Source: Candidatus Shapirobacteria bacterium (GTDB taxonomy: Bacteria; Patescibacteriota; Microgenomatia; UBA12405). From it: a stretch of DNA of 64,000 bases. The notes beneath the pieces were generated by a model, which made no database searches, had not been told where the DNA came from, and worked only from the letters and a program-made list of their open reading frames with translations. A program made the position numbers and the translations under genes. Below, piece by piece: positions 6,731-57,577 of the stretch (positions within the stretch are counted from its first letter, which is position 1; each line of letters opens with the position of its first letter). The stretch lies in assembly GCA_041659325.1 (NCBI GenBank), contig JBAZYN010000001.1, positions 430,819-494,818 on the forward strand, in the 5' to 3' direction.

Positions 6731-6796
6731 TAGTCACAGTAAAAGTCTCCCTTGTCAAAGGGAGATTTAGAGGAATTAAAATATTATTTGTTATAA

Positions 6797-7900
<1,104 letters not shown>

Positions 7901-7902
7901 CT

Positions 7903-8964
7903 ATGGGAAAAACTTTTTTATGTATTAATTTCGGTTGCCGGGTCAACGCTGCCGAAACCAACCAATTCGCCCAAAAGTTAATTAGCGATGGTTATACTCC
8001 CCTCCTTTCTTCAAAGGAGGGGCCGGGGGTAGATTTAATCTTCATCAACACCTGTTCCGTCACCGCCAAAGCCAACATCGAATCTCTTGGCAAAATCCGC
8101 TCTCTTCGTCATCAGTACCCAAACGCAAAAATTGTCGTTTCTGGATGCGCCGATTTAAGAAATATTGAAGTATTACCGAATATTTCCATTATCAACAATG
8201 TTGAAAAAGAAAAAATTCTTGAAAAAATCAATGGCGCCTATCGCCCGCAAATAGGGGACAAGTTTAGTCATACCCACCGCTATATCTTAAAAGTTCAATC
8301 CGGCTGTACCCACAATTGCTCGTATTGTACCGTGCCCCAAAAAAGGCCATATCTGTGGTCTTTACCCATTACCACAGCCATCGATACGGTAAATCAGGCC
8401 ATAAAAAACGGCTATCAGGAAATCATCATCTCCGGCGTAAATCTCGACCAATACAAGTATGGTTTTTCCACCCTAATCGAATCTCTTTTAAAAAACACAT
8501 CCGTTCCCCTTATCTCCTTCGGCTCCATCCCCCTAAATTGCATCGATAGTCGCTTCCTTTCCCTAATGACAGATTACAGGTTACAGATTACCAATTTCCT
8601 CCATATTCCCCTCCAATCCGGCTCCGACAAAATCCTAAAACTCATGCACCGCCCTTACAATGTTAAAAAAATAAAAGAAATCTTTACTTCCTTAAAAAAT
8701 ATCACCCCCCGCCCTGTCAAGGGAGGGGCTGGGGGAGGGTTTAGTTTTGGTACCGACATCATTGTCGGCTTTCCCGGGGAAACCGATGCTGAATTTGAAG
8801 AAACATATAATTTGTGTAAACTTATCGGTTTTTCCAAAATCCACGTCTTTAGATTTTCCCACCGGCCCAATACTCTTATTACAGATTATTACAAATCGTG
8901 CCTTAAACCATCTAAAGTTGACATCAAATCCCGCGCCGAAAAACTCCGAAAACTTTCAACATAA
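7903..8964 (+). CDS. Radical-SAM methylthiotransferase, MiaB/MtaB/RimO family
   Basis: An N-terminal MTTase domain (INTCSVT), radical-SAM CxxxCxxC (CTHNCSYC), and 353 aa with no TRAM domain. Two in-frame Gly-rich insertions derive from the GGGAGGG repeat family. Confidence 0.8.
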   Translation: MGKTFLCINFGCRVNAAETNQFAQKLISDGYTPLLSSKEGPGVDLIFINTCSVTAKANIESLGKIRSLRHQYPNAKIVVSGCADLRNIEVLPNISIINNVEKEKILEKINGAYRPQIGDKFSHTHRYILKVQSGCTHNCSYCTVPQKRPYLWSLPITTAIDTVNQAIKNGYQEIIISGVNLDQYKYGFSTLIESLLKNTSVPLISFGSIPLNCIDSRFLSLMTDYRLQITNFLHIPLQSGSDKILKLMHRPYNVKKIKEIFTSLKNITPRPVKGGAGGGFSFGTDIIVGFPGETDAEFEETYNLCKLIGFSKIHVFRFSHRPNTLITDYYKSCLKPSKVDIKSRAEKLRKLST

Positions 8965-8966
8965 TG

Positions 8967-9004
8967 TTCTCCCTTGTCAAAGGGAGAATTAAAGAGGGAT
9001 TTAT
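8967..9004. repeat. Hairpin repeat element TTCTCCCTTGTCAAAGGGAGAA + TTAAAGAGGGATTTAT (family R1)
   Basis: Near-identical copies are at 6746-6777, 19588-19624, 22911-22957 and 54354-54390. Diverged copies are at 16690-16765, 42697-42749, 44228-44270, 47238-47276, 47419-47458 and 47481-47518. Intragenic copies are at 7998-8040, 8705-8748 and 54995-55034. Confidence 0.85.
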
Positions 9005-9069
9005 ATTGTTATTTCACCCTTTTTCTCCCCATTTACTAATTACTGATTACAAAGCTAATAATTTCTCCA

Positions 9070-10170
9070 TCACCTCCCAAACCACACTTCCATTTCATCA
9101 AAAACCGCATAGTTAAACGACACTTCCTGTCCCGGAAACCGCGCATTTTTACCCCAAATACAGGCTTTATTAACATCATCCCGCATTTGGCTAGAAATCC
9201 GTTTCAAGACATCATCAATAGTCTTTGTTTTTTTCATAATCAGCGGTTCTTTTTTATCACCCTCGGTATTTCTCTCATACCTCAGATATACCCGAACAAG
9301 TCCCAGCTCCCTCCAAATTTTTTCCTTTAATTCTTCCAGGCCAATCTCTTTATCCGCACTTAAAAATAATACTTCCCCGGTTTTTACTTTCGACTTTAGA
9401 CTTTCGACTTTAAAGTTATCAATTTTATTGATAATTCTCACTACCGGCATATATCTTCTGGATTTTGACAAGCCATCAATCAATACATCTACACTTTTGA
9501 TTTTTTCTCCAAACTGAATCAGAGCATTGTTATACCCCATTTCTTCGGCAATTTCCTCCACCAATTCTTTGTCAAAAGAATAATATGGATCAATAATTTG
9601 TATCGCTCCCTTATCAGTCCGGTTAATATGAATTTTGGGTGGTATCTGCCCCAATCTTATCCCCGATTTATAAAGTTCATTGGCCATAATATCCAGCCAC
9701 CCAATCCTTTTTACATCAGTCATTATCACCGCCAAGTCAGATGCTCTGATTACAGAAATCACTTTTTTCCCAAAACCTTTGTTTTCAGCCGCCCCCTCCA
9801 CAATACCGGGAAGATCCAAGATTTGAACTTTAACACCTTTATATTCCATCATTCCGGGGACCACGCCCAACGTAGTAAAATCATAATTTCCCACTTTCGA
9901 CTCAGCATTGGTCAGTTTATTGAGGAGTGTCGACTTTCCCACACTCGGTAGCCCCACCAAAACCACTGAAGCGTCACCGGAGTGTTTAATTGCATACCCT
10001 ACTCCTCCGCCTCCGCCTTTCCCCGACGAGCCCTGCAATTCATCCTGCAATTTAGCCATCTTGGCTTTCAAAAGTCCATGCAAGTGTTCCGTCCCTTTGT
10101 GGTATGGCGTGTCCCGAATCTCCTTCTCGATTCGAGACATCTTCATTTTTATTATTTCTTCTTTGGTCAT
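9070..10170 (-). CDS. DRG/Rbg-type Obg-family GTPase with C-terminal TGS domain
   Basis: An N-terminal helical region (TPYHKGTEHLHGLLKAKMAKL), G1 GLPSVGKST, G3 DLPG, then a TGS-like C-terminus. This architecture is typical of archaeal/eukaryotic DRG. Confidence 0.7.
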   Translation of the reverse strand: MTKEEIIKMKMSRIEKEIRDTPYHKGTEHLHGLLKAKMAKLQDELQGSSGKGGGGGVGYAIKHSGDASVVLVGLPSVGKSTLLNKLTNAESKVGNYDFTTLGVVPGMMEYKGVKVQILDLPGIVEGAAENKGFGKKVISVIRASDLAVIMTDVKRIGWLDIMANELYKSGIRLGQIPPKIHINRTDKGAIQIIDPYYSFDKELVEEIAEEMGYNNALIQFGEKIKSVDVLIDGLSKSRRYMPVVRIINKIDNFKVESLKSKVKTGEVLFLSADKEIGLEELKEKIWRELGLVRVYLRYERNTEGDKKEPLIMKKTKTIDDVLKRISSQMRDDVNKACIWGKNARFPGQEVSFNYAVFDEMEVWFGR

Positions 10171-19577: not shown

Positions 19578-19623
19578 CATTATAGTTTTCTCCCTTGTCA
19601 AAGGGAGAATTAAAGAGGGATTT

Positions 19624-19965
19624 ATGAGAGTTAAAACAGGCACAGTCCGCCACGCCGGACATAAAAAAATACTTCAGCAGGCAAAAGGGTTTTGGATGAC
19701 CCGTCACAAAAGGTTCAAAGTCGCCAAAGAAGCTGTTATGCACGCCGGCCAATATGCCTACGAGGGCCGTCGCATTAGAAAAAGAGACATTCGCCAGATT
19801 TGGATTGTCCGTATCAACGCCGCCCTCAAACCATTCGAGATCAGTTACTCCAAATTTATAAAATCTCTAAAAGACAAAAAGGTCGATCTCAATCGCAAAG
19901 TCCTCTCTGATCTTGCCACCAACAATTCGGACGCCTTCAAAGCCATCGTTACCTTTATCAAATAA
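19624..19965 (+). CDS. rplT: 50S ribosomal protein L20
   Basis: The L20 signature region (RAKRGYRNARSR-like HKKILQQAKGFWMTRHK). The ATG lies immediately after an R1 repeat copy whose AGAGGGA provides an SD-like sequence. Confidence 0.9.
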   Translation: MRVKTGTVRHAGHKKILQQAKGFWMTRHKRFKVAKEAVMHAGQYAYEGRRIRKRDIRQIWIVRINAALKPFEISYSKFIKSLKDKKVDLNRKVLSDLATNNSDAFKAIVTFIK

Positions 19966-22878: not shown

Positions 22879-22953
22879 AGTCAAAACTCCCCGTCAAATG
22901 ACAAGCTATATTCTCCCTTGTCAAAGGGAGAAACCCCGAAAAGGGGAGAGGGA

Positions 22954-25626
22954 TTATAAACCGGTCGTTCCCACAGTTGGTACCACCGTTGGCACAATAG
23001 TCACCGTCGCCATCATTGTTGGTGTCGGAATAGTTACCGTTGGTGTTGCTGTTGGTGGCACGGGGGTAATTGTAGCAGTAGGGGAGGGGCTCCAATTCCA
23101 GGGCAAATTTACACCGATACTTACGTCAGCCACCCCGAAGCTTCCGTCTTTATCAACCGCCTTAACCTTAATTTTATAAAGCCCATCTTTTAAACTAACC
23201 TTGGTTTCATATGGCTTCTCAGTCCACACTTTCTTTTCCTCATCGTTAATCCACATTTTGACCTCAACAATCTTTTTCAGAGATGAGGTGTGAACCTTCA
23301 CCTCAAAATCATTCCCCACTGTCGTTTCATGGTACGGATTATCAAATCCGATACTCACCATCCCGTCAGTCCGACAATAGTCTTCCGGGGGGTTATATTT
23401 ATTTTTATCAGCTTGTTGACCAATCCACTCGTCTATTCCTTCCTGCCACCTATTTCTCCCATCTTTCGAAACAGGATCTTCTTCGGCCAATTTTATATAT
23501 TCCTTTTCTTCGTAATTATTCGAGGCGATATCCTGAGGCGTCGCCAACCCCGCCTTGTCACCCTTACACACTCTCAGCTTCATATGAATCGGATCCGAAA
23601 TTTTCGGCTGCGTTCCGTCAATAAAATATTCTGTCCTGGAGGGAAAACCGTCATGTGCCGGATATCCGGACAATCTGTCAACTTCCGCCGACACAATCCT
23701 GTCCGGGATGGGAAAATCCTGTTTTGGTCGTGTTGGAACTATCAAAAGCATAATCCTTTTCCAGATGGGGCTAGCTCCGGAAACACCCGAAGCCACTTTC
23801 AGCATTTGGCTGTTATCGTTGTTTCCCACCCAAGTGGCCACCAACAAGTTCGGTGTCCAGCCGATCGCCCAGTTATCACGTTTATCATTAGTCGTTCCGG
23901 TCTTTACCGCCACCTGATAATTTGGAATTATCAGCCCATTTACCGCCCCAAAAGTTATTTCTCTTGCAGAATTATCAGACAAAATATTGGATATAATAAA
24001 TGCCTCTTGCGGCGTCATTACCCTTTTGGAATCAATCTGTCGAAACTCCTCCATCACCCGACCGTTGCTATCCTCCACCCTAAGCACCCCCGTCAGCTCT
24101 TTTTTCCATCCCGTATTGGCAAACGAGCTATAAGCCGCCGCCAATTCAATCATCCGTACTTCCGCCCCACCCAAAGTCACCGCCAGTCCATATCTTGACA
24201 GATTTTCTTTTGTCGGTTCCAAAGTTGTCAAACCCATCTCAAACGCCTGCTGCAGCATCTTCTCCAGTCCCACATTGGCAAGCATTTTGACCGCTGTCGT
24301 GTTTATAGAATTGCCCAGGGCATTTCGCAAAGAGATCGGCCCCAAAAATTTACCGGTATAGTTCTGTGGTTTATAATCTTTCTGTCCCTGCGTACCGGCA
24401 AAAGTTACTGGCGTATCCATAATCAAACTCCCGGCCGTCCACCCCTTTTTAATTGCCGTCAGATAGGTAACCGGTTTAATAGCCGATCCGGGCTGCCTTA
24501 GTCCCTGTGTCACTACATTAAAATTACCGTCTGTTTTATCCGAATTGTACCCCCTCGACCCCACCATCGCCAAAACCTGTCCGGTCACCGGATCAACCAC
24601 CAGAGCCGCCCCGTTACTTATACCCATTTTTTCCGCTTTATCAATTTCCTCCGCCACTATCTTTTGCACTTCGTCCTGCAGCTTCAAATCAAGTGTGGTA
24701 GTAATTTTCAAGCCTCCGCCTTCAACCACATCCTCGCCGTACTTTTTTGCCAATTCCTCTTTAACCCAAAAGATAAAATGGGGCGAGACAATCTGGCTCG
24801 AGTTATCAAAAAACTTATAATCCACAGATTGCTTTATCGCCTCATTGTACTGATCCGTGTTTATGTATTCGTCCTGCAGCATTCGATCCAAAACATGTTT
24901 AGTTCTGGCCACATAGGCCTTGGGCGTCGTCGAAAAAGGACTGTACACACTCGGTCTTTGGGGTAATCCTGCCAAAATCGCGCTTTCCACCAGATTCAAT
25001 TCAGACACCGGCTTGCCAAAATACTGTTCGGATGCCGTTCCCACCCCCCAGGCTGTACCACCATATGGAGCCTCGTTCAGATACATCAAAAGTATCTCGT
25101 CCTTCTTGTATTTGGCCTCAATCTGCATCGCCAAAATCAATTCTTTAATCTTCCGCGTTACGCTCCGCTCCGAAGTCAACAAAACATTTTTAACCAGTTG
25201 CTGAGTTAAAGTCGATCCTCCGGTTAAATGGCCCAGCACAAAATAGTTTTTTACGATTCGAAAAGGGGTTAGCGGGTCAAAACCCTTATGGCTATAAAAT
25301 TCCTTATCCTCCACTGCTACGGTCGCTTTTTTCAAATAATCTGGTATCTCTTCCCACACGATAGGTGTTCTTTTAATATCCTTGTAGACATCATACAAAA
25401 GCTCCCCGTTTCGGTCAAAGATTTTACTGGAAAATCCCTCCCTTCTGACTACTTTGGACGGTGTCGGCAAATCCTTGGCATACCAGGCAAACAGCACAAA
25501 AATTCCTACAAACCCCGCCAAAATCATCACCAACGCAAAAACAAAAAATCCCATCAACAATCGACGCCTATCGATTTTCGGTCTCTTTTTTAACATATCG
25601 CAAATCTTTCTTCTTATTTTATCCAC
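22954..25626 (-). CDS. Class A penicillin-binding protein (PBP1A-type glycosyltransferase/transpeptidase) with long C-terminal extension
   Basis: GT51 motifs (EDKEFYSHKGFD, GGSTLTQQ), transpeptidase motifs SAIKP, SxN and KTGT, and a C-terminal Pro/Thr-rich tail. Confidence 0.9.
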   Translation of the reverse strand: MDKIRRKICDMLKKRPKIDRRRLLMGFFVFALVMILAGFVGIFVLFAWYAKDLPTPSKVVRREGFSSKIFDRNGELLYDVYKDIKRTPIVWEEIPDYLKKATVAVEDKEFYSHKGFDPLTPFRIVKNYFVLGHLTGGSTLTQQLVKNVLLTSERSVTRKIKELILAMQIEAKYKKDEILLMYLNEAPYGGTAWGVGTASEQYFGKPVSELNLVESAILAGLPQRPSVYSPFSTTPKAYVARTKHVLDRMLQDEYINTDQYNEAIKQSVDYKFFDNSSQIVSPHFIFWVKEELAKKYGEDVVEGGGLKITTTLDLKLQDEVQKIVAEEIDKAEKMGISNGAALVVDPVTGQVLAMVGSRGYNSDKTDGNFNVVTQGLRQPGSAIKPVTYLTAIKKGWTAGSLIMDTPVTFAGTQGQKDYKPQNYTGKFLGPISLRNALGNSINTTAVKMLANVGLEKMLQQAFEMGLTTLEPTKENLSRYGLAVTLGGAEVRMIELAAAYSSFANTGWKKELTGVLRVEDSNGRVMEEFRQIDSKRVMTPQEAFIISNILSDNSAREITFGAVNGLIIPNYQVAVKTGTTNDKRDNWAIGWTPNLLVATWVGNNDNSQMLKVASGVSGASPIWKRIMLLIVPTRPKQDFPIPDRIVSAEVDRLSGYPAHDGFPSRTEYFIDGTQPKISDPIHMKLRVCKGDKAGLATPQDIASNNYEEKEYIKLAEEDPVSKDGRNRWQEGIDEWIGQQADKNKYNPPEDYCRTDGMVSIGFDNPYHETTVGNDFEVKVHTSSLKKIVEVKMWINDEEKKVWTEKPYETKVSLKDGLYKIKVKAVDKDGSFGVADVSIGVNLPWNWSPSPTATITPVPPTATPTVTIPTPTMMATVTIVPTVVPTVGTTGL

Positions 25627-38580: not shown

Positions 38581-39936
38581 TTACTCAGTTCCTATTGTCA
38601 TCCCCACACTATTTGCCACTGTCAACCGTGCCATCGAGGGCGGACCATTTGGACCGACACATGTAATTCTATTTATTGCCCCAACACCCCAACTGCCGTC
38701 ACATGCGCTAATCGCGTGTACCCAAATATCATACGTCCCTCCCGGTTCAAAAGTATAATATTTGTAAGTCGTACTCACATCCTCACAAACATCTCCCGGG
38801 TTGGTTGGGGTACATGCACTGTTAAAAGAACTTGGCGAATCATCAACCCTCAAAGGATAATAGTCAGCCCCGGCCACCGGATTCCAGGATATTCTATTTC
38901 CGGCCACATCACAGACTAGTCCGGCCGGATTGGCAACCGGCTCACAGGCTGAATCAGGGATTGGTGTCGCCGACGGGGCACAAGCCGCGCAATTCCACGA
39001 CCCCCCTCCGTCTACATACATACAGACCAAGGGTGAATTCAGGCATTCCATGTGGCAACAATTTAATCCATAAACAGAATTCCCCCAATCTACATAACAA
39101 GACGATGCCGACACTTTTACCCCACAAACGCCACATGAAGCATCACATAGGGGATAGCCTGGTCCGGGAGTATTGGTGGGAGTAGGGGCTATTGTCCTCG
39201 TTGCTGTTGGCGCTCCCGGTACCGGAGTCCGGGTTGCCGTTGGCGTCGGAGTCCGGGTTGCTGTTGGCACTCCCGGTACCGGTGTCCGCGTTGCCGTTGG
39301 CGTCGGTGTCCGGGTTGCTGTTGGCACTCCCGGTACCGGTGTCCGCGTTGCCGTTGGCGTCGGTGTCCGGGTTGCTGCTAGCGTCGGTGTCCGGGTCGGA
39401 GTCGGAGTCACACAGGAAGCAGACGATATACAGCTCACCGTCCCGCTAAAGCTTTTCTTTCCGTCCCATCGGCTGCAATAAGTCCCATCATTCCTCAAAA
39501 TTTGATTTGAAGGACAGCTCAAACTCACGCTAGGGCCCGATACCCAACCCGTATTGCAAGCCCCCAATCCACACCAATTTAATCCTGACCACCCGCACGA
39601 TTCATTCCAAACACTGGTTTGGCAGGCAGGTGCGGGAGTCGACGTCGGCACCGCAACCGGGGTAGAAGTAGGCGGAGTTCCACAGCTTGTATTCTCTCCA
39701 TTACACTGATCACTTCCTTCACCGGAAACTGTTTTACAAACATAACTGCTGTTACAAGTCCGCCGGCAACAAGAATCGCTATTTGTATAATTACACCCCC
39801 CCGCAGGGGTACAACACGACATATTACAAACTCCATGACTACTGTCGCAATTACAAGCCCCCTGGGCAAAAGTAGGACGTGGCGAAAACAAAACGGTACT
39901 CAACAAAAACAATAAATACAAAAAAACTATTTTCAT
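38581..39936 (-). CDS. Secreted cysteine-rich protein with Thr/Pro tandem repeats (paralog family member D)
   Basis: Signal peptide. The module CDASCGVCGV...NCCHMEC...CAACAPS is shared with the 33860 gene. There are 3.5 copies of a 19-aa TRTPTPTATRTPVPGVPTA repeat. Confidence 0.6.
   Translation of the reverse strand: MKIVFLYLLFLLSTVLFSPRPTFAQGACNCDSSHGVCNMSCCTPAGGCNYTNSDSCCRRTCNSSYVCKTVSGEGSDQCNGENTSCGTPPTSTPVAVPTSTPAPACQTSVWNESCGWSGLNWCGLGACNTGWVSGPSVSLSCPSNQILRNDGTYCSRWDGKKSFSGTVSCISSASCVTPTPTRTPTLAATRTPTPTATRTPVPGVPTATRTPTPTATRTPVPGVPTATRTPTPTATRTPVPGAPTATRTIAPTPTNTPGPGYPLCDASCGVCGVKVSASSCYVDWGNSVYGLNCCHMECLNSPLVCMYVDGGGSWNCAACAPSATPIPDSACEPVANPAGLVCDVAGNRISWNPVAGADYYPLRVDDSPSSFNSACTPTNPGDVCEDVSTTYKYYTFEPGGTYDIWVHAISACDGSWGVGAINRITCVGPNGPPSMARLTVANSVGMTIGTE
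39186..39410. repeat. 57-bp tandem repeat (about 3.5 units) inside the CDS
   Basis: A direct repetition of GTTGCTGTTGGCACTCCCGGTACCGGTGTCCGCGTTGCCGTTGGCGTCGGTGTCCGG with a few substitutions. Confidence 0.85.
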
Positions 39937-39955: not shown

Positions 39956-40432
39956 TTATTTCTTAATTACTTTAACTTTATAATTATATTCTTTTGCTAG
40001 ACCTTTGACTGAATAAGGAAACTCCCCTAGCTGCTCAAAACTCCTGGTCCACTCCTCCCCGGGCAATATCGTCCTCGGCCCCATAAGTTCAAACTCTACC
40101 GCCACCATGCTATCGGTTCCGTTTCTAAAGGTAACAAAATCATGAAATCCCAAAATTCTGGACTGATCTTCGGCCGAAAGGCCGTTTTCGCCGATAACAA
40201 ACTCAAAAGTTTCCGCTTTTTTCGCCATCTCTTCTTGTTCTGGGGTATAAGTAGGTACTATCGCCTCCTTTTCTTTTGGGATAACTTGATTTCGGCTTTT
40301 ATTACCGATTCCACCCTCTGCAACATATCTCATCCCCACCGATCCGACCAACACCAACACGCCCAAGATAAAAAATACCAATCCCAACGAAACCTTCGCC
40401 GTAGCTCCTCTTTTAAACAAATTATCAATCAC
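39956..40432 (-). CDS. Hypothetical membrane-anchored protein
   Basis: An N-terminal TM helix. 158 aa. Confidence 0.4.
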   Translation of the reverse strand: MIDNLFKRGATAKVSLGLVFFILGVLVLVGSVGMRYVAEGGIGNKSRNQVIPKEKEAIVPTYTPEQEEMAKKAETFEFVIGENGLSAEDQSRILGFHDFVTFRNGTDSMVAVEFELMGPRTILPGEEWTRSFEQLGEFPYSVKGLAKEYNYKVKVIKK

Positions 40433-40466
40433 AACTAAAGATTAAAGTATCCCCGCACCTATGTCA

Positions 40467-40498
40467 ATCGAGGCGGGATCTTTCGATTCCCGCCTCGA
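40467..40498 (-). terminator. Perfect 11-bp-stem hairpin TCGAGGCGGGA-N10-TCCCGCCTCGA downstream of the 40524 gene
   Basis: It lies 26 nt after the stop. A near-identical copy (one mismatch) follows the 41528 gene at 41453-41482. Confidence 0.45.
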
Positions 40499-40523
40499 TT
40501 ATCTACTTTAAATTCAACTTATC

Positions 40524-41123
40524 TTACGGACGCCTTCGTCTTGGCGCTCTGACAACCGGTTTGGCTGGAGGATTTTCTACCATAGAATCCCCTACAAACG
40601 ATTCAGCTGCTCCACAGGATGGTTTTCCTCGCCACAGAGGAGTATCAAGCGGATATTCGGTCACTATCAGAAAAGTGCCGTCATCTAGCCTACCTAAAAT
40701 TGTCTCTGTCGGGAAGACTCCAGGTCCGTCACCAATCTTAACTGTCTCTGTCGCCGAGGATCTAGGATCACCGCCAACCCAACTGAGTCCGGGTCTTGGT
40801 TGCCACGGAGCAGATGGATATGTATCGTCGATTCTACTCACTCTCACGGCTACCCCGCACCTATTAATAGTCCAATCACCAGAACCATTGACACTATAAT
40901 TTTCCTGTATCGCTAGCTGTCTCTCTATGGGCAGTACCGGCAATACCACTCTGTTTTCCGTATCTCTGGACACACCCCCCTCTTCTGCCTTAGCAACACC
41001 ACTAACTGCAGCCCCACCAGCACCAAGTAATAATGTCGCCAACCCCACCCTGGCAACATATTCTACAAACCCAACATGTCTTTTAGCAGATCCTTCATTA
41101 TTTCTTCTAATATTTCTTTCCAT
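40524..41123 (-). CDS. Secreted protein, tandem paralog 1 (conserved 45-aa N-terminus, unique C-terminal domain)
   Basis: The N-terminus MERNIRRNNEGSAKRHVGFVEYVARVGLATLLLGAGGAAVSGVAKA is about 80% identical to the N-terminus of the 41528 gene product. The upstream region is duplicated. Confidence 0.55.
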   Translation of the reverse strand: MERNIRRNNEGSAKRHVGFVEYVARVGLATLLLGAGGAAVSGVAKAEEGGVSRDTENRVVLPVLPIERQLAIQENYSVNGSGDWTINRCGVAVRVSRIDDTYPSAPWQPRPGLSWVGGDPRSSATETVKIGDGPGVFPTETILGRLDDGTFLIVTEYPLDTPLWRGKPSCGAAESFVGDSMVENPPAKPVVRAPRRRRP

Positions 41124-41300
41124 TTATTTTTATTTAAAAAATAATTAATTAGCGAACAGACGTAATATAACAAATATTCTAGGACATGTCAATATCATAT
41201 TTACTCTATCCTTGCATACAATCAATTATATCAAAAAATTTAAAATATTCATTATAAAATATTATACACACCAATTACACACGCCAAAAATCACTCCTCC
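41124..41300. repeat. About 180-bp direct repeat (promoter/5'UTR), copy 1
   Basis: More than 90% identical to 42029-42205. Confidence 0.85.
41164..41192 (-). promoter_or_regulatory. Consensus sigma70-type promoter TTGACA-17-TATATT
   Basis: Read on the minus strand, about 45 nt upstream of the ATG. It lies inside the 180-bp direct repeat. Confidence 0.5.
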
Positions 41301-41527
41301 CATTCTAAAAAAATCAACCCTAAAGAAATTTTCGCCTCCCCCCTATCTCTTTTTTTATCAACACCGCCGCCCCCGTCCGAAAAACATAAAGATTAACTCC
41401 TAGTCACAAATAAAGACTAATGAATTACTTCTCGTATGTCAATCGAGGCGGGATCTTTCGATTCCCGCCTCAATTAATTACTTAAATTCAAACCTACTCT
41501 GCAAACCCCACTTGCATTGCAAACGAT

Positions 41528-42028
41528 TTACCTTGGTCCGCAAGTTGGTTCTCCCTGCGATAAATCAGTCCCACCCCTATATTCGATCACATATAATACG
41601 CCATCCTTTGTCATTGTCCCTACAGGTCTCCACTCATTGCCAAGGCGGCTCTTTCCTCCTGTAGCTTGCCACGGAGCATCCGGATAGTCGGGTGTTCTTG
41701 GGCCTTCACCTGGGACGGGAATCGGAGTCATTTGGGTACCTGTTCCACACTCGTCAACAAAAAAACGACCGGCATTACCATCTCTGGCTCTGACCATATA
41801 GTCTATTATTATTCCTAATCGTTCACCGAGAGATACTCTCGGCAATACCACTCCACTTTCCTTACCGGTTCTATACGCTTCACTAACCTCTGCCTGAGTA
41901 ACGCGACCAATAGCAGCCCCACCAGCACCAAGTAATAATGTCGCCAACCCCACCCTGGCAACATTTTCTACAAGCCCAACATGTCTTTTAACGGGTTCTT
42001 CATTATTTCTTACAATATTTCTTTCCAT
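41528..42028 (-). CDS. Secreted protein, tandem paralog 2
   Basis: The N-terminus MERNIVRNNEEPVKRHVGLVENVARVGLATLLLGAGGAAIGRVTQA, followed by a divergent C-terminal domain. Confidence 0.55.
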   Translation of the reverse strand: MERNIVRNNEEPVKRHVGLVENVARVGLATLLLGAGGAAIGRVTQAEVSEAYRTGKESGVVLPRVSLGERLGIIIDYMVRARDGNAGRFFVDECGTGTQMTPIPVPGEGPRTPDYPDAPWQATGGKSRLGNEWRPVGTMTKDGVLYVIEYRGGTDLSQGEPTCGPR

Positions 42029-42205
42029 TTATTTACTATTTAAAAAATAATTAATTAGCGAGCAACCGTAATATAACATATATTCTAGGACATATCAATA
42101 TCATATTTACTCTATCCTTGCATACAATCAATTATATCAAAAATATTAAAATATTCATTATAAAATATTATACACACCAATTACACACGCCAAAAATCAA
42201 TTTCT
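42029..42205. repeat. About 180-bp direct repeat, copy 2
   Basis: See 41124-41300. Confidence 0.85.
42070..42098 (-). promoter_or_regulatory. Sigma70-type promoter TTGATA-17-TATATT (duplicate)
   Basis: The same architecture as 41164-41192, in the second copy of the 180-bp repeat. Confidence 0.45.
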
Positions 42206-42772
42206 TATCTTTATTTCCGAGGAAAAGTATTTCGAAACAAAGTCACTCGGGCCACCGCCCGATAGGCCGGAGCTCAAATAAAATCCCACGCTCAAATCGA
42301 CCACTTTTCCTGTCGATGGGGAAGTCGTCCCGCTGATAAAATTCCCGCAACCGCTCACCTCCACTTCTTCGCCGCTCAGCCGAACGGTATTCGCCGACAC
42401 CGATGCAATTTGGCTATCTGCCGACTCCACACATTGAATTGTCGTCCCTATGCTCGACAAGGAAACCCAAGATTTATCCGCCGGGTCCAATTCGATTGTC
42501 TCTCCCGGAGCATTTATCACGTTTTTTCTGATTTCCGACAATACCCAAGCCCCATTCTGCTCCACCTTATCCGCCCAATTGATCCTGTTTTTCGCCTTAA
42601 AAGAATTAACCAAAACGGTAGTTATAGAAGTCAGGATAAACCCCATCACTGATACCACCACCACTATTTCAATCAAACTAAAACCCATCCTTTTAATCTC
42701 CCTTTCGTCAAAGGGAGATACCCCCACAATAGTGGGGGAGAGGGATTTTGCTTTTGACTCTTTTCTTCTCAT
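42197..42772 (-). CDS. Prepilin-like protein (class III signal, G|FSLIE)
   Basis: KRMGFSLIEIVVVVSVMGF. An R1 repeat copy lies in the putative leader-coding region, so the start could instead be the M directly before G. Confidence 0.65.
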   Translation of the reverse strand: MRRKESKAKSLSPTIVGVSPFDEREIKRMGFSLIEIVVVVSVMGFILTSITTVLVNSFKAKNRINWADKVEQNGAWVLSEIRKNVINAPGETIELDPADKSWVSLSSIGTTIQCVESADSQIASVSANTVRLSGEEVEVSGCGNFISGTTSPSTGKVVDLSVGFYLSSGLSGGGPSDFVSKYFSSEIKIRN

Positions 42773-43669: not shown

Positions 43670-43834
43670 ATATATAAATCTACCATATTACGTCATTACG
43701 ATCCTGAGCCCGTCGAAGGAGTGACAATCTTTAAACCTGCGACTTTGTAGGAAAATCACCACAACCTTCGGTCTCGAAATAACGAGCAGTGTTCTCCTTA
43801 CAGATTACAGATTACCAATTACTGATTACCAAAT

Positions 43835-44275
43835 TTACGGCTGTGTCACCCGATAGTTACAATTTCCGGTCGTACACGATACCGCAGTCGCAATCGTTGT
43901 TCCTGTCTCCATCCTGGCATATAGAAAATAGGTGTAATTAGTCTGCCGGTCATAAACATAGGTATCGCTACTCGGCCCAACCGGGTAAGCCGACAAAAAC
44001 CCTCCCGAAGTCAATACTGATATGCTTGAGTCATCAGGATATGTCGTCCCCACCTGTCTCACCACTTCCAGTGCCATTCTGATTCTCTCCAAATCGGCCT
44101 GCCTTCTCCCGTCCCTTGCCTTTCTATTCGTCGTTCCGAAACTCACCGTCGCAATCGCCGTAATTATTGCAATTATAGTTATCACCACAATCAATTCAAT
44201 CAAACTGAAACCTAGTTTTTTTGTAGTGCCCCTCCTTTCGTCAAAGGAGGGGGTAGGGGTAGATTTAATTCTCAT
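43835..44275 (-). CDS. Prepilin-like protein (G|FSLIEL) with 22-aa leader
   Basis: KKLGFSLIELIVVITIIAI. Part of the leader is encoded by an R1 repeat copy (PSFDERRG). Confidence 0.65.
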   Translation of the reverse strand: MRIKSTPTPSFDERRGTTKKLGFSLIELIVVITIIAIITAIATVSFGTTNRKARDGRRQADLERIRMALEVVRQVGTTYPDDSSISVLTSGGFLSAYPVGPSSDTYVYDRQTNYTYFLYARMETGTTIATAVSCTTGNCNYRVTQP

Positions 44276-46422: not shown

Positions 46423-47220
46423 TTACTCTAACATTTTTTGGACATAGAAACCAACGCTCCCGCTCCACCACCAGGCCACCAATGTCCCCAATATCAGAAA
46501 CGGACCAAATGGTATGACTGATTTTCTTTTTACCTTTTTTACCGCCATCAATACCAATCCCACTATCGCTCCCGACACAAACGCCACATAAAAAGCCAGT
46601 ACTGTCTTTTCGGGGCCTAGCAACAATCCCATAAACACCGCATACTTTACATCTCCCATCCCCATCCCTTTCCCCTTAGTTATCACGTGTAAAAACAGTA
46701 AAAATCCTGCCGCTCCAACCGCCGCTAATAAATAAGGGACTACATTTTTCTCATCAAAAAACACCCCGGCAAAGGCGATAACAATCAGTATTATCGTAGA
46801 AAAATCCGGCAATATCATGTATCTAAAATCAAACACCGCACTAAACACCAACATCGTGATTATTACCAACTCCAAAACAAAAAAAACGTTAAATTCGTAA
46901 TTTGAAATTCGTAATTCGTAGTTAATTAAAAATAATATCCCCATTGTAATTTCTACAATAGGGTAGGAGACCGGTAAACTTTTGGCACAACATCTGGTTT
47001 TTCCGCCCTGCGTCAGCCACGAAATTATTGGCACATTCTCAAACCACCTCAACTGTCTTCCGCAATAATCACAATAACTCCTTTCTTGAGACTTTAGGAC
47101 TTTTGGACTTTTAGACTTTAAGACTTTATATCGAACAGCAGTTCGATAAACTACCATATTCACAAAACTCCCAAAGCACGCCCCCAAGACAAAAATCGTT
47201 ATCAAAAGCAACATTTCCAT
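46423..47220 (-). CDS. pilD: Prepilin peptidase (A24 family)
   Basis: An N-terminal Cys tetrad (CFGSF...CDYC) and the conserved Asp-containing TM core. It contains in-frame octamer and heptamer repeat insertions. Confidence 0.8.
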   Translation of the reverse strand: MEMLLLITIFVLGACFGSFVNMVVYRTAVRYKVLKSKSPKVLKSQERSYCDYCGRQLRWFENVPIISWLTQGGKTRCCAKSLPVSYPIVEITMGILFLINYELRISNYEFNVFFVLELVIITMLVFSAVFDFRYMILPDFSTIILIVIAFAGVFFDEKNVVPYLLAAVGAAGFLLFLHVITKGKGMGMGDVKYAVFMGLLLGPEKTVLAFYVAFVSGAIVGLVLMAVKKVKRKSVIPFGPFLILGTLVAWWWSGSVGFYVQKMLE

Positions 47221-47224
47221 AATC

Positions 47225-47580
47225 TATTGTACTAATACCCCTCCTTTCCTCAAGGGAGGGATTAAGGGTGGATTTTTGCCCCTCCGTCATTACGAGGAGC
47301 AGTTATATAAGCGACGTGGTAATCGTTACAGAATTAAAATAGTCGAGTTGTTTCAGGATTACGAAGCCTGTCCCGAGAAACGAGGTATCGTTTCTCCTCG
47401 CAATGACAAACATTCTAACCCTCCCTTCGTCGAGGGAGGGAATAAAAGGGTGGGTTTGGCTTGAGGGTAGATTTAGATTTATCCCTCCCTTTTCAAGGGA
47501 GGGAAGGGTGGGTTTAACCTAAAACCCCGCCTTTCGGCGGGGTTAAATTCGTAATTCGTAATTACTAATTCCTGCCTGCC
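47225..47580. repeat. Repeat-dense intergenic region: four R1-family hairpins, AATTCGT heptamer repeats and a roughly 130-nt closed stem-loop element
   Basis: Hairpins CCCTCC(C)-loop-GGGAGGG at 47238, 47419 and 47481, and CCCCGCC-TTTCG-GCGGGG at 47523. GTCATTACGAGGAG at 47289 pairs with CTCCTCGCAATGAC at 47393. Confidence 0.7.
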
Positions 47581-47605
47581 GGCAGGCATGGCGTAATTAA
47601 CCTCA

Positions 47606-54317: not shown

Positions 54318-54419
54318 CATCATTGCCACTCGGTTTAGCAGGAGCAACAAGTGTTCTCCCTTGTCAAAGGGAGAATTAAAGAGGGATTTTGGCTGTAAGG
54401 TTTAAGCTATAATCACTCA

Positions 54420-56411
54420 ATGATCACCCTCGACACCCTCGATCTCCAACACTTGTCCCCGCAGGACTTAGGCGAGCTTCTTATCTCCGCCAAAAACGCC
54501 TATTACACCACCGGCAAGCCCATCATGGATGACCACACCTACGATACCCTTGAGGAAATTCTTCGTCAAAAAAATCCGCATCATCGGATTTTTCAAAAAG
54601 TCGGCAACAAAAATTTTGATACCGGCTTTCTCAAAAAATCCCATTCCATGCCCATGGGCTCCCAAAACAAAGTCACCACCGCCGCCGAGTTAGTCCACTA
54701 CTTCGAGCTAAAAAAAATCGCCGGAGGCAACGTTGATATGCAAAGCATATCTTACGTTGTTCAACCAAAAATCGATGGAATTTCCCTCGAAATCGAATAT
54801 AAAGACGGCAACCTAATCGATGCCATTACTAGGGGAGACGGTTTTATCGGTGACGTTATCACTCAAAATGTCGTCCGTATGCAAAATTTCCGTGAAAGAT
54901 TAAATGAGGATTTTACTGGTACCATCCGCTGCGAAATCGTCGTTACCTACAAAGATTTTAAAAAACTAAACAAAATTGTTGAAAAAAATAATACTCCCTC
55001 CCATTTTCAAGGGGAGGGTGGGGGAGGGGTTTCATACTCCAATCCCCGCAATGCCGTCTCCGGCATTTCTCAACGGTTAGACGGAAAATTTTCCGAATTA
55101 TGCAGTCTGATAGCCGTCGACATTTCCCCGGAACCGGCTTTGGAATCAGAAAAAATCACTAAACTTAAATCGCTGGGTTTCATTCCCGTCGAAACTCATC
55201 TCTGTCAAAATTTTAACCAAATCGAACAAATCTACCAACAATTTCTCACCAAAACCCGCAAAACTTATCCCTTTGAAATTGACGGCTTAATAGTCAAAAT
55301 AAATAATCTGAAAATTGCCCATCATCTTGGTTCCAAAAATAATCGGCCAAAATTTCAAATCGCATACAAATTCCCGGCCGAAAGCAATCAAACTCAAATC
55401 AAGAAAATTGAATGGCAGGTCGGTCCTTTGGGTACTATTACCCCGGTTGGTCAAGTTGAGCCAATTGAGTTGACCGGCGCTGTCATTACCTTCGCCTCCC
55501 TGGGTAATTACGATTTGGTTATTCAAAAAAACATCAATATTGGCGATATTGTAGAAATATCCCGTCGCGGCGATGTTATTCCCCATGTCGAAAAAATCAT
55601 CACCAAGGTCAACCCGGGCCATGTTGATATCCCCATCCTCTGTCCCAGCTGTCAAACTAAATTGATCAAAGAAGACAAATTCCTCCGCTGCCCCAATCCA
55701 AAAAATTGTTTAGCCCAAATATTAGGGTCTCTGCGCCTTTTTTGTGATACCCTTGGCATCCTTGGTCTTTCCGACAAAACCATCGCCAAACTCTATCAAG
55801 CCGACAAAATTCGTCTCCCGGGAGATTTCTACAAACTAACCATCGGCGACATTAGTAATCTTGTTAATCTTGGAGAAAAATCAGGCAAAAATATTATTTA
55901 CCAAATCCAAACCAAAAAAAACCTGACCCTCAAGCAAGTTTTTGATGCCGCTATCATTCCCAATTTCAGCGCCGCCCGTATTCAACAATTAATTACAGCC
56001 GGTTTCAATACCCCGGAGAAACTTTTAAATATTTCCAAAGTCGAAATTGAATCTCTCCCCGGTTTTCAAAAAACCCTGGCCGAAAAAATTCAGGCGGGAA
56101 TAGAGTTACGAAAAGAATGGTTAAAATCCATCCTCTCCCAAGTTCAGATTACCAACCACCAATTACCAGTTACCAATTACAGATTACAAGGCCTAGCCTT
56201 CGCTATCACCGGCGATCTTTCCCAACCCCGAAAAAAAATTGAAGATCTGATCGAACAAAACGGGGGATCAGTCAGTTCTTCGGTTTCCAAAAATACTTCT
56301 TACCTCATAACAAACGAAACTAAGTCAAATTCTTCAAAATTTCTCGCCGCCAAAAAATTCGGTACCAAAATCATCACCGAAACTAAGTTTCTAGAACTCA
56401 TTAACTCGTAA
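54420..56411 (+). CDS. ligA: NAD-dependent DNA ligase
   Basis: The adenylation motif KIDGIS, OB-fold, Zn finger (CPSCQ...C..C), HhH and C-terminal BRCT. It contains in-frame R1 and ATTACNN repeat insertions. Confidence 0.9.
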   Translation: MITLDTLDLQHLSPQDLGELLISAKNAYYTTGKPIMDDHTYDTLEEILRQKNPHHRIFQKVGNKNFDTGFLKKSHSMPMGSQNKVTTAAELVHYFELKKIAGGNVDMQSISYVVQPKIDGISLEIEYKDGNLIDAITRGDGFIGDVITQNVVRMQNFRERLNEDFTGTIRCEIVVTYKDFKKLNKIVEKNNTPSHFQGEGGGGVSYSNPRNAVSGISQRLDGKFSELCSLIAVDISPEPALESEKITKLKSLGFIPVETHLCQNFNQIEQIYQQFLTKTRKTYPFEIDGLIVKINNLKIAHHLGSKNNRPKFQIAYKFPAESNQTQIKKIEWQVGPLGTITPVGQVEPIELTGAVITFASLGNYDLVIQKNINIGDIVEISRRGDVIPHVEKIITKVNPGHVDIPILCPSCQTKLIKEDKFLRCPNPKNCLAQILGSLRLFCDTLGILGLSDKTIAKLYQADKIRLPGDFYKLTIGDISNLVNLGEKSGKNIIYQIQTKKNLTLKQVFDAAIIPNFSAARIQQLITAGFNTPEKLLNISKVEIESLPGFQKTLAEKIQAGIELRKEWLKSILSQVQITNHQLPVTNYRLQGLAFAITGDLSQPRKKIEDLIEQNGGSVSSSVSKNTSYLITNETKSNSSKFLAAKKFGTKIITETKFLELINS

Positions 56412-56492
56412 ACTTTGTAACTTTCAGACTTTGAGACTTTTAGACCTTCGGCTTTTTGACTTTCAGACTTTGAGACTTTAGACTCTTTCATC

Positions 56493-57023: not shown

Positions 57024-57548
57024 ATGAAGTTATTCGTCGGTCTCGGTAATCCGGGAGAAAAATATCGGCTCACCCGCCACAACCTGGGACAAATGGTTGT
57101 CAATCAATTTGTAGCAACGCATCACAATGCGTTCCTCTCCAATAAAAAATTATCTGCCAAAATCGCCGAGTATCAAAATTCAAAATTTGCCACCCTTAAC
57201 TCCTTTATGAACGAGTCTGGTTTTCCGGTCAGCAAAATCGTCAATTACTTCAAAATTAGCCCACAGGATCTCTACATAATTCACGATGATCTTGATTTGC
57301 CGATAGGGGAGTACCGTTTCCAGTGCGACCGCGGCCCGGCCGGGCACAAAGGGGTTTCCTCCATCATCGAACAGCTCGGCACCCAAGCCTTCCACCGCAT
57401 CCGTATTGGTATCGGTAAACCCACCACTCCCATTGCGGTCGAAGACTATGTCCTCCAGCCATTTTCAAAAGAAGAACAGGTGCTAATAAACCAAACTATT
57501 GATAAAATAATTACCGAGACAAAAACAATAACGGATTTTAATTCGTAA
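57024..57548 (+). CDS. pth: Peptidyl-tRNA hydrolase
   Basis: The N-terminus MKLFVGLGNPGEKY..TRHN. 175 aa. Confidence 0.85.
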   Translation: MKLFVGLGNPGEKYRLTRHNLGQMVVNQFVATHHNAFLSNKKLSAKIAEYQNSKFATLNSFMNESGFPVSKIVNYFKISPQDLYIIHDDLDLPIGEYRFQCDRGPAGHKGVSSIIEQLGTQAFHRIRIGIGKPTTPIAVEDYVLQPFSKEEQVLINQTIDKIITETKTITDFNS

Positions 57549-57577
57549 TTAATAATTCGTAATTCGTAATTGATTTC

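Follow-up and report, generated by a model that had tools for sequence, protein, structure and literature searches.

R1 is a short repeat that occurs 13 times in a stretch of 64,000 nucleotides (nt; hereafter "the window") from a Candidatus Shapirobacteria bacterium, a member of the candidate phyla radiation (CPR); the window has a G+C content of 40–45%, and R1 is found in it between genes and inside intact open reading frames (ORFs). From its architecture R1 is probably a dispersed family of class II purine-motif intrastrand-triplex repeats, built like the BoxC/PIT/TM_ECO elements of Escherichia coli, whose translated copies are tolerated as loops. Copies were located by a scan for the core CAARGGRRG together with a structural hairpin search, and all 13 lie on the + strand (Table 1). 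The size of the family in the window is far above chance, with ten short-spacer elements compared to a mean of 0.05 in 40 dinucleotide shuffles. The copies are not an assembly artefact because a 2.2-kb contig assembled independently from a public run (Logan contig L103) is identical to the window over positions 6744–8991, both copies in the methylthiotransferase gene mtaB included; the same contig ends exactly at two other R1 copies.

On one strand, R1 consists of a pyrimidine arm of 8–11 nt, a loop of 3–4 nt (GTCA in 36 of 64 copies), the complementary purine arm, a spacer that usually has 3 nt (most commonly TTA, also CCG and others) and a tail made up of G, A and T. The basic element has 34–37 nt, and overall the length ranges from 34 to 52 nt. 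The tail is the purine arm read backwards, and is neither a reverse complement nor a direct repeat of it; terminal A's of the purine arm appear as T's in the tail, and a T always follows the tail. This order of domains was found in all 12 well-formed window copies and in about 50 copies of related loci, and in every window copy the tail mirrors the purine arm at 8–10 of 9–10 positions. An earlier sequence-only reading of the window had described R1 as a palindromic repeat; R1 is not simply a palindrome, and the defining feature of the family is the mirror-image purine tail.

The tail covaries with the arm over 30 distinct purine arms from about 100 loci, examples of arms and their tails being AGGGAGGGG and GGGGAGGGT, AAGAAGGGG and GGGGAAGAT, AAGAGGGGG and GGGGGAGAT, AAGGGGAGA and AGAGGGGTT, and AAGGGAGAA and AAGAGGGAT. 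For a statistical test of the mirror relation, hairpins were chosen blind to the tail and oriented by the GC skew of the locus only, and the null distribution was obtained by swapping the downstream regions among the hairpins. The mean mirror match was 0.80 as against a mean direct match of 0.71, and none of 1,000 permutations (0.714 ± 0.008) reached the observed value. The mirror match exceeded the direct match in 64 hairpins, and the reverse was true for seven (p = 1e-12). On these grounds we reject the views that the tail repeats the arm directly or that it serves as another partner for pairing with the 5′ arm.

Class II purine-motif triplexes are defined by a pyrimidine domain, a purine domain and a 3′ antiparallel reverse-Hoogsteen domain of G, A or T, with stems of 6–15 nt and loops of 1–6 nt (PMC4666352). 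Stems of this length with at most one mismatch are present in all R1 copies, and loops of 1–6 nt in eight of the 12 well-formed window copies, the exceptions being 22911 and 42696 (a hairpin as loop 2), 47419 (a loop 2 of 7 nt) and 47482 (no loop 2). In about one-third of all copies, including 22911 and 42696, loop 2 is replaced by an unrelated GC hairpin of 11–37 nt, and such an interchangeable loop is typical of a folded nucleic acid. When eight copies were folded as single-stranded DNA, the first hairpin was formed and the tail left unpaired in seven of them, and the folding z was −3.4 to −6.7 in six. The two weaker values belong to copies that contain a mismatch, mtaB site 2 (z = −0.9) and ligA (z = −1.8); in the minimum-energy fold of the former, the 5′ arm pairs with the tail, which is therefore not free.

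A G-quadruplex (G4), or a switch between triplex and quadruplex, could in principle be formed from the purine arm and tail in place of a triplex, given that several copies have four G-runs (e.g. 8707, GGGAGGGGctGGGGGAGGG, as well as 54996 and 47482) and that repeats of a comparable design in archaea change between the two folds in vitro (PMC8044849). We nevertheless regard this as very unlikely. The commonest subtype, AAGGGAGAA-tta-AAGAGGGAT, has two G3 runs only and could not form an intramolecular G4, so that the G4 is rejected as the general fold, and the position-by-position mirror relation, which a G4 does not need, is conserved in all subtypes including the A/T positions.

At the gathering threshold of Rfam, only tRNAs were matched in the window, and no family was found for R1. 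Roles as promoter or intrinsic terminator were dropped upon reading the sequence, with no formal scan: the spacing from TTGTCA to TATATT does not fit, the stem is not followed by a U-run and there are copies in antisense orientation to pilin genes.

Coding sites in MtaB, LigA and pilin leaders

Five of the 13 window copies are located inside intact ORFs, two in mtaB, one in the DNA ligase gene ligA and two, antisense, in prepilin leaders. The sequence-only reading had reported these five copies to within 1–2 nt and with the peptides that we find, and had noted that all of them preserve the reading frame. The host ORFs are intact and PDB alignments reveal homology on both sides of each intragenic copy. 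The gene it had called miaB is better named differently, the product being a MiaB/RimO/MtaB-family protein of 353 aa that lacks a TRAM domain and has the JGI name MtaB.

Compared to solved structures, the R1 peptide at MtaB site 2 corresponds to a gap of nine residues in MiaB (7mjz) and RimO (4jc0), and the LigA segment to a gap of 11 residues in 1dgs, 1v9p and 2owo. MtaB site 1 is only three residues longer than in the solved structures, and because the net gain there amounts to only about 3–5 residues, R1 partly overwrites native codons. The proposed placement in surface loops is supported by the gaps as well as by an AlphaFold2 model of MtaB (mean pLDDT 88.6), in which the only marked dips, at residues 31–40 (70) and 271–280 (62), are the two R1 peptides. 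Site 1 lies in the coil between H13–28 and E45–50, and site 2 in the coil between H254–265 and E281–288.

To compare the sites across the class, we used 32 aligned MtaB orthologs and 80 genomic loci of other Shapirobacteria. Site 2, measured from QSGSDKIL to GTDII, comprises 26–28 residues in most orthologs and 33–49 residues with R1, and about 18 loci have an intact hairpin and tail at the DNA level. At site 1, the baseline is 28 residues as compared to 32–34 with R1 (33 in the window), such as "PLLSSKEGPGVDLIF" and "PLVKEGQGRLDLIL". Of 120 LigA orthologs, 57 are without the insert, 13 have a near-baseline segment of 9–12 aa, 29 have peptides like those of R1, read in various frames, 12 another repeat peptide of 24 aa and five a third family. 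The closest LigA ortholog (77% identity) is without the insert, and LigA of L099 (67% protein identity) has the same R1 with 35 of 36 nt identical to the window copy.

R1 variants occupy both of these MtaB sites and this LigA site in many orthologs at 55–79% identity, too, and different lineages have filled them with different R1 variants or with unrelated repeat families. The MtaB and LigA segments are repeat-derived, dispensable loops, and the R1 coding sites are recurrent and polymorphic across the class and not private to the window genome. With respect to the sequence-only reading, the segments are indeed lineage-variable, located in loops and absent from solved MiaB, RimO and LigA structures and from many Shapirobacteria orthologs, but they are not particular to this genome, and the expansion that it had proposed gives way to recurrent, polymorphic hot-spots rather than one recent event.

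In MtaB sites 1 and 2 and in ligA, R1 is read in sense orientation and in three different frames, resulting in the unrelated peptides VKGG, LSSKEG and FQGEGG. An R1 element has on average 4.2 open frames out of six. TTA, the spacer commonly seen between genes, closes one frame on each strand; the intragenic spacers in the window are instead CCG, CTG, TGG and GTA. The Gly-rich peptides result from the translation of homopurine/homopyrimidine DNA, and as R1 is read in each of the three sense frames and also antisense, there is no sign of selection for a protein motif. The opposite view, according to which the enzymes have the Gly-rich segments by ancestry or adaptation and the likeness in DNA is secondary, could explain why peptides of this class are found at one and the same loop in many orthologs. 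It is effectively refuted by the presence of the same DNA element between genes and in antisense, by the unrelated peptides from three frames, by the absence of the segments from solved homologs and about half of the orthologs and by invariant third codon positions (see below), which selection at the protein level leaves unexplained.

The two pilin genes differ in how firmly R1 can be assigned to the leader. In pilin 43835–44275, the start codon overlaps the upstream stop codon (ATGA) and no later in-frame start precedes the G/FSLIE cleavage motif, and R1 therefore codes for part of the leader, as had been claimed for both genes. Pilin 42197–42772 has the same ATGA arrangement and in addition an internal ATG just 3′ of R1, with a Shine–Dalgarno-like purine arm nine bases upstream of that ATG. 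Judged by its sequence, this internal ATG could be the true start, and R1 may here be either leader-coding or part of the 5′ untranslated region.

In relatives, R1 is also present antisense and in frame in other housekeeping genes, namely those of an Obg/DRG-like GTPase (L046:6820 and L001:7430, at the same site), RnpA (L092:5979) and a large membrane protein (L004:12502); the window ortholog of the Obg-like GTPase (9070–10170) is without R1.

Several ligA alleles are peculiar in structure. L101 has the full element, CCCCTCTT-GTCA-AAGAGGGG followed by 16 nt and GGGGAGATT, and L102 keeps the tail only (agt GGGGAGATT tat, read SGEI), the 42-nt difference between them being exactly the hairpin plus loop 2. 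The "EIVKNSGEI" form is common to six LigA orthologs. In L099 (3580–3720), about 30 nt directly 3′ of R1 (YSNPRNAAAG) are duplicated around a GC hairpin, GGCGGGC-TTG-CCCGCC, which is suggestive of another insertion in which a long flank was duplicated.

Nucleotide conservation, strand polarity and the origin of the copies

At MtaB site 2, the R1 arms of the window, L003, L004 and L028 are identical at 31 of 31 nt, including all third codon positions, and are joined to four different spacers. In the same four genomes, third positions at identical residues of the adjacent GTDIIVGFPGET region are only 40–63% identical. The nucleotide conservation of the R1 arms exceeds the synonymous expectation. 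The 3′ junction in MtaB is likewise fixed to the nucleotide (tail GGN-TTY, one codon, F/L, then GTD). Occupancy is close to randomly distributed over the neighbour-joining tree of 79 MtaB sequences, in which a minimum of 16 changes is required for the 19 carriers at site 2 (random 17.1) and of 12 changes for the 16 carriers at site 1 (random 14.8).

The + strand is C-rich across the whole window (GC skew about −0.1 to −0.39), irrespective of gene direction. Among 63 unique elements, the purine-motif strand is on the C-rich strand of the locus in 57 cases as opposed to six. The ratio is 38 to six without the mtaB copies (p = 9e-7) and 29 to six without the mtaB copies and the window (p = 1e-4), and several exceptional copies belong to inverted pairs, an arrangement also seen in E. 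coli. The strand rule is obeyed by eight of nine antisense intragenic copies, showing that the polarity follows the chromosome strand and not transcription.

The conservation might mean that R1 is useful to the host, for instance as a programmed polymerase pause, as a hot-spot of recombination or repair or as a strand-specific signal, so that selection keeps the DNA element and the protein loops are the price. Arms that are 100% identical next to saturated synonymous sites argue for such a use, as do three-way compensatory variation at orthologous sites, intergenic positions that are conserved in a relative with 77–81% DNA identity, the strand polarity itself and a tail that supplies the Shine–Dalgarno sequence of rplT. 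However, many orthologs have no R1 at the same sites, and the unrelated repeat families at these very sites fit tolerance better than function; the E. coli counterparts are moreover without promoter, terminator or replication effect in vivo. Taken together, we consider a host function unlikely.

The polarity and the patchy distribution would also be expected of a non-autonomous mobile element, similar to repetitive extragenic palindromes (REPs) and REPINs or to IS200/IS605, whose hairpin and tail are recognised by a single-strand DNA transposase that is encoded elsewhere, acts in trans and inserts the element at the fork, which would give both a strand bias and repeated hits at the same sites. 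In accordance with this, the orientation bias follows strand composition independently of gene direction, the carriers are distributed almost at random over the tree at fixed junctions, arms are identical across diverged genomes, both copies of L053 share a private GTTA loop, the GTCA of the first loop is conserved although a triplex alone does not require it and target-site duplications are missing, as is the case for HUH/Y1 elements. Yet a scan of 20 window ORFs yielded neither a Y1/RAYT nor any other transposase, the only conserved target position is a 3′ T that is itself part of the tail, and net insert sizes of +15 to +33 nt for an element of 34–37 nt are untidy for cut-and-paste transposition. 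BoxC/TM_ECO elements are not associated with mobile elements either, and no enzyme is known for them (PMC4666352). We hold mobility of this kind to be possible but rather unlikely.

The reading that we hold to be probable is that of triplex-forming repeats with tolerated translated copies. The relevant molecule would be single-stranded DNA, because according to the literature purine-motif triplexes do not form in RNA and because the orientation of R1 ignores gene direction. In this molecule, the arms would form the hairpin and the tail would lie antiparallel in its major groove, with G·G-C, A·A-T and T·A-T as the predicted triplets. Shapirobacteria harbour R1 in intergenic spacers and at a few permissive loop positions in housekeeping genes (MtaB twice, LigA and the prepilin leaders; in relatives, the Obg-like GTPase and RnpA). 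Homopurine and homopyrimidine tracts are almost free of stop codons and encode Gly, Pro, Ser, Lys, Glu and Arg, and a copy with a net length divisible by three could be read through in any frame and orientation as a short flexible surface loop. Selection would keep only net changes of 3n that fall into leader peptides, which are cleaved off, or into loops between helix and strand that tolerate them, and would remove other insertions, and the peptides would be by-products of translated R1 DNA. The constraint is on the nucleic acid and could stem from purifying selection or from repeated copying of conserved masters. As orientation tracks strand composition rather than gene direction, a DNA-level process at the replication fork may be involved. 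In bacteria, the leading strand is usually G-rich. If this rule holds here, the stable purine-motif strand would be on the leading-strand template, and the single-stranded lagging-strand template would carry only the acid-dependent pyrimidine-motif complement; the strand bias could then reflect selection against fork-blocking triplexes or strand-specific insertion. The anatomy of R1, the three-way covariation, the polymorphic in-frame occupancy, the placement in loops, a nucleotide conservation above the synonymous expectation and the strand bias are directly observed, whereas triplex formation in the cell, the link to replication and the way in which copies spread are inferred.

Several observations weigh against this interpretation. 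The triplex is deduced from sequence symmetry alone, and even for TM_ECO of E. coli in vivo footprinting with dimethyl sulphate was negative (PMC4666352). None of the 20 small window ORFs matched a transposase, and the profile of the flanks of 64 copies contained neither a target-site duplication nor a motif beyond A/T richness and the terminal T of the tail. The loci sampled lean towards mtaB neighbourhoods and towards one 22-mer hairpin, and the C-rich strand was called lagging by the general bacterial rule rather than from a mapped origin. In addition, the patchy occupancy is compatible both with recurrent insertion and with an old insertion that was often precisely lost or exchanged between alleles. 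Common ancestry plus deletion is favoured by the tail-only allele of L102 and by an "IVKNS" extension that the R1-bearing LigA alleles have in common upstream of the repeat, whereas the near-random distribution over the tree, the identical arms in distant genomes and the two L053 copies with the private GTTA loop favour ongoing copying.

A stronger version of the proposal is that triplex repeats are actively placed or maintained in one orientation relative to the fork, including inside essential genes, by a machinery that reads the hairpin plus third strand in single-stranded DNA. This version is doubtful. If true, it would provide a first biological handle on the BoxC/PIT class, through a mobilising or recognising protein or a function in replication or recombination, and it would imply selection for a DNA triple-helix motif that overlaps protein-coding sequence.

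Remaining copies and other repeats

Table 1. Host genes and R1 copies of the window.
Feature	Position	Strand	Details
Host gene 1, mtaB	7903–8964	+	MiaB/RimO/MtaB-family radical-SAM methylthiotransferase, 353 aa, without TRAM domain; Pfam UPF0004 + Radical_SAM; E=4e-23 to MiaB structure 7mjz
Host gene 2, ligA	54420–56411	+	NAD-dependent DNA ligase LigA, 663 aa
Degenerate intergenic R1	6747–6777	+	Upstream of tgt; CTCCCTT-GTCA-AAGGGAG, weak tail; L103 ends here
R1, mtaB site 1	7999–8035	+	Sense; CCCCTCCTTT-CTTC-AAAGGAGGGG-ccg-GGGGTAGATT, encodes PLLSSKEGPGVDL; peptide PLLSSKEGPGVDLIF
R1, mtaB site 2	8707–8740	+	Sense; CCCCGCCCT-GTCA-AGGGAGGGG-ctg-GGGGAGGGT, encodes PRPVKGGAGGGF; peptide PRPVKGGAGGGFSFG
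Intergenic R1	8967–9000	+	Begins 3 nt past the mtaB stop codon; TTCTCCCTT-GTCA-AAGGGAGAA-tta-AAGAGGGAT
Intergenic R1	19588–19621	+	Between infC and rplT; tail GAGGGATTT abuts the rplT ATG at 19624
Intergenic R1	22911–22954	+	Second hairpin CCCC-gaaaa-GGGG in loop 2
R1, pilin	42696–42747	+	Antisense, second hairpin; at 5′ end of ORF 42197–42772(−); encodes KSLSPTIVGVSPFDEREI if the start is the ATG at 42772; peptide SPFDEREIKR
R1, prepilin	44229–44265	+	Antisense; in leader of ORF 43835–44275(−); encodes STPTPSFDERRG; peptide PSFDERRGTT
Intergenic R1	47239–47274	+	In the repeat-rich spacer 47221–47605
Intergenic R1	47419–47456	+	The 13th copy, missing from the list of the sequence-only reading
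Intergenic R1	47482–47514	+	Without spacer; TCCCTCCCTT-TTC-AAGGGAGGGA-AGGGTGGGTT
Intergenic R1	54354–54387	+	Upstream of ligA
R1, ligA	54996–55031	+	Sense; CCCTCCCATT-TTC-AAGGGGAGGG-tgg-GGGAGGGGTT, encodes PSHFQGEGGGGV; peptide PSHFQGEGGGGVSY

The intergenic copy upstream of rplT supplies the Shine–Dalgarno sequence of this gene, the tail GAGGGATTT ending directly at the start codon (window 19610–19626), and the same placement is seen in the relatives L086 and L090. The commonest G-rich tail, GGGGAGGG (8729–8740 and others), fits GGGNAGGG, which we take to be the consensus of the FtsK-orienting KOPS sequences of E. coli; it is on the C-rich strand, opposite to the presumed KOPS enrichment, and the match may be a coincidence.

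The spacer 47221–47605, between a prepilin-peptidase-like gene and a pilin gene, contains three R1 copies, a GC hairpin and other repeats. A tail-only R1 remnant, GAGGGTAGATTT, is present at 47463–47474, an element of about 125 nt has inverted ends, GTCATTACGAGGAG (47285–47301 and 47395–47409), and the palindrome CCTGCCTGCCGGCAGGCATGG at 47572–47592 also serves as loop 2 of the mtaB R1 in L046.

A second translated repeat family consists of tandem units of about 7 nt, GATTACA or GATTACC, at 8566–8591, 56141–56187, 43804–43829 and 9040–9056, and is likewise found between genes; in frame, these units are read as MTDYRLQITN in mtaB and as QITNHQLPVTNYRLQ in ligA. In relatives, a palindromic family of the type GTCATTGCGAG... 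is translated at the same hot-spots, as "SPRNDVIASEARQS" at MtaB site 2 of L013, L018 and L067 (three tandem copies in L018) and as "VIARSETTKQSPVDRHEPSALAMT" in 12 of the 120 LigA orthologs (P0166, P0183, P0187 and others). A third family (ETHRMRLNN..RDVFNTSL / NCRDVINHVST) is found in LigA and at MtaB site 1.

Arrays of the 8-nt unit GACTTTNR are located at 47078–47127 and 56407–56479, the latter beginning at the ligA stop codon, and AATTCGT-type arrays at 46884–46917, 47538–47571 and 57532–57565. In orthologs that lack R1, MtaB site 2 is occupied by short tandem units of similar kind, rich in A/T (KNLKLKIKNL, IYDLQSTINDL). About 300 nt are duplicated 905 nt apart with 87–96% identity (40984–41293 and 41889–42199), with a conserved hairpin AATCGAGGCGGGATC-TTTC-GATTCCCGCCTCGATT near each copy, and the repeat pair 40429–40521 and 41404–41496 was listed with the same duplicated region. 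Tandem repeats of 57 nt (39158–39405) lie inside ORF 38581–39936(−), upstream of the pilus gene cluster. The window has 13 tRNA genes; segments of about 110 nt adjoining tRNA-Val and tRNA-Leu (21–179 and 1827–2019) are about 80% identical, including GCGCAGCCACGTTTATTTGCGAAGCAAATATTACGT.

Comparison with known systems

The closest counterparts of R1 are the BoxC/PIT elements of E. coli, reportedly the subject of work by Hoyne and Maher in 2000 and 2002. These elements have been known since the 1990s, and we are aware of no function or means of spread for them. BoxC was rediscovered as PIT elements, which were later named TM_ECO (Holder et al, 2015, PMC4666352). Single strands of TM_ECO form a triplex in vitro as determined by circular dichroism and nuclear magnetic resonance whereas the duplex does not, and the elements are always intergenic, without strand bias (13 vs 10) and linked to local instability (PMC4666352). 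An example is CCCTCGCCCC-TTT-GGGGAGAGGG-TTA-GGGTGAGGGG (PMC4666352).

R1 shares with TM_ECO the one-strand class II layout (in TM_ECO, an arm of 9–10 nt, a loop of 3–6 nt and a second loop of 3 nt), the total length of 34–37 nt, TTA and CCG as second loops, A-to-T replacements in the tail, a subtype with a G·A mismatch in the stem (in R1, CCCCGCCCT/AGGGAGGGG), occasional inverted pairs and the occurrence of many near-identical copies without an associated transposase. The TM_ECO consensus CCCTCNCCC-N3-6-GGGNGAGGG-N3-GGGNGAGGG, however, has no match in the window, and as there is no Rfam match either, R1 is a different sequence family of the same structural kind. It also differs from TM_ECO in that its arms end in A/T, its first loop is mostly GTCA and loop 2 contains a GC hairpin of 11–37 nt in about one-third of the copies. 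Furthermore, R1 is translated inside genes and strongly strand-biased, neither of which applies to TM_ECO, and its host is a CPR bacterium and not a proteobacterium.

The colonisation of genes resembles that by the Rickettsia palindromic elements (RPEs), which were reportedly described by Ogata et al. in 2000 and 2002. RPEs are palindromic repeats that lie in frame in many unrelated housekeeping genes of a reduced genome and are translated, fold-compatible and lineage-variable (PMC10969869), and this precedent speaks against calling the spread of R1 through housekeeping genes unusual, as the sequence-only reading had done. Like RPEs, R1 is in frame in several unrelated housekeeping genes, polymorphic between lineages and located in surface loops. 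In contrast to R1 (34–52 nt, 11–17 aa, several frames and orientations, a mirror tail), RPEs are, at about 100–150 bp, longer by a factor of three to four and code for a single conserved peptide of 30–50 aa, and the sequences are unrelated.

REP/REPIN–RAYT systems and IS200/IS605 have in common with R1 short hairpin repeats, a conserved flanking motif and the absence of target-site duplications, and IS200/IS605 insertion is tied to the single-stranded DNA of one replication strand. Unlike R1, REPs are extragenic, start with a 5′ GTAG and usually form inverted doublets, and the mirror tail has no REP counterpart. GTAG is present in only some R1 tails (7999, 44229), and no RAYT was found among 20 small window ORFs, a scan that did not cover the remainder of the 574-kb genome. 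Methanogenic archaea and Deinococcus have C-rich plus G-rich repeats in which a GC hairpin and a G-rich third strand adopt a triplex or G4 in vitro (PMC8044849). These repeats differ from R1 in being reported as intergenic only, with an orientation uncorrelated with genes, and in archaea the order of C-rich and G-rich parts is different (PMC8044849). Intragenic miniature inverted-repeat transposable elements (ERIC, Correia/NEMIS, BOX and cyanobacterial elements) are also small non-autonomous repeats that sometimes form in-frame fusions in ORFs; they have at least 100 bp, terminal inverted repeats and target-site duplications, whereas R1 has neither of the latter two features. For intragenic repeats of CPR/Patescibacteria, nothing relevant was found in the literature searched.

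In practical terms, R1 matters for CPR protein annotation and modelling, in that many length differences between orthologs are repeat-derived loops and not functional domains, and for metagenomics, in that the repeats break assemblies, as in L103 with its ends at two copies. With respect to the BoxC/PIT/TM elements, which form triplexes in vitro and have been seen only between genes and without strand bias (PMC4666352), the strand-polar, translated, nucleotide-conserved and repeatedly gained or lost copies of Shapirobacteria provide, in place of an anecdote, a data set for comparison that extends over hundreds of public genomes and in which the questions of how R1 moves and what role it has become directly testable. 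Each half of the R1 system is known, the structural class from BoxC/PIT and the colonisation of genes from RPEs, and it is the combination of a CPR host, translated triplex motifs, recurrent hot-spots, invariant synonymous sites and strong strand polarity that appears to be new.

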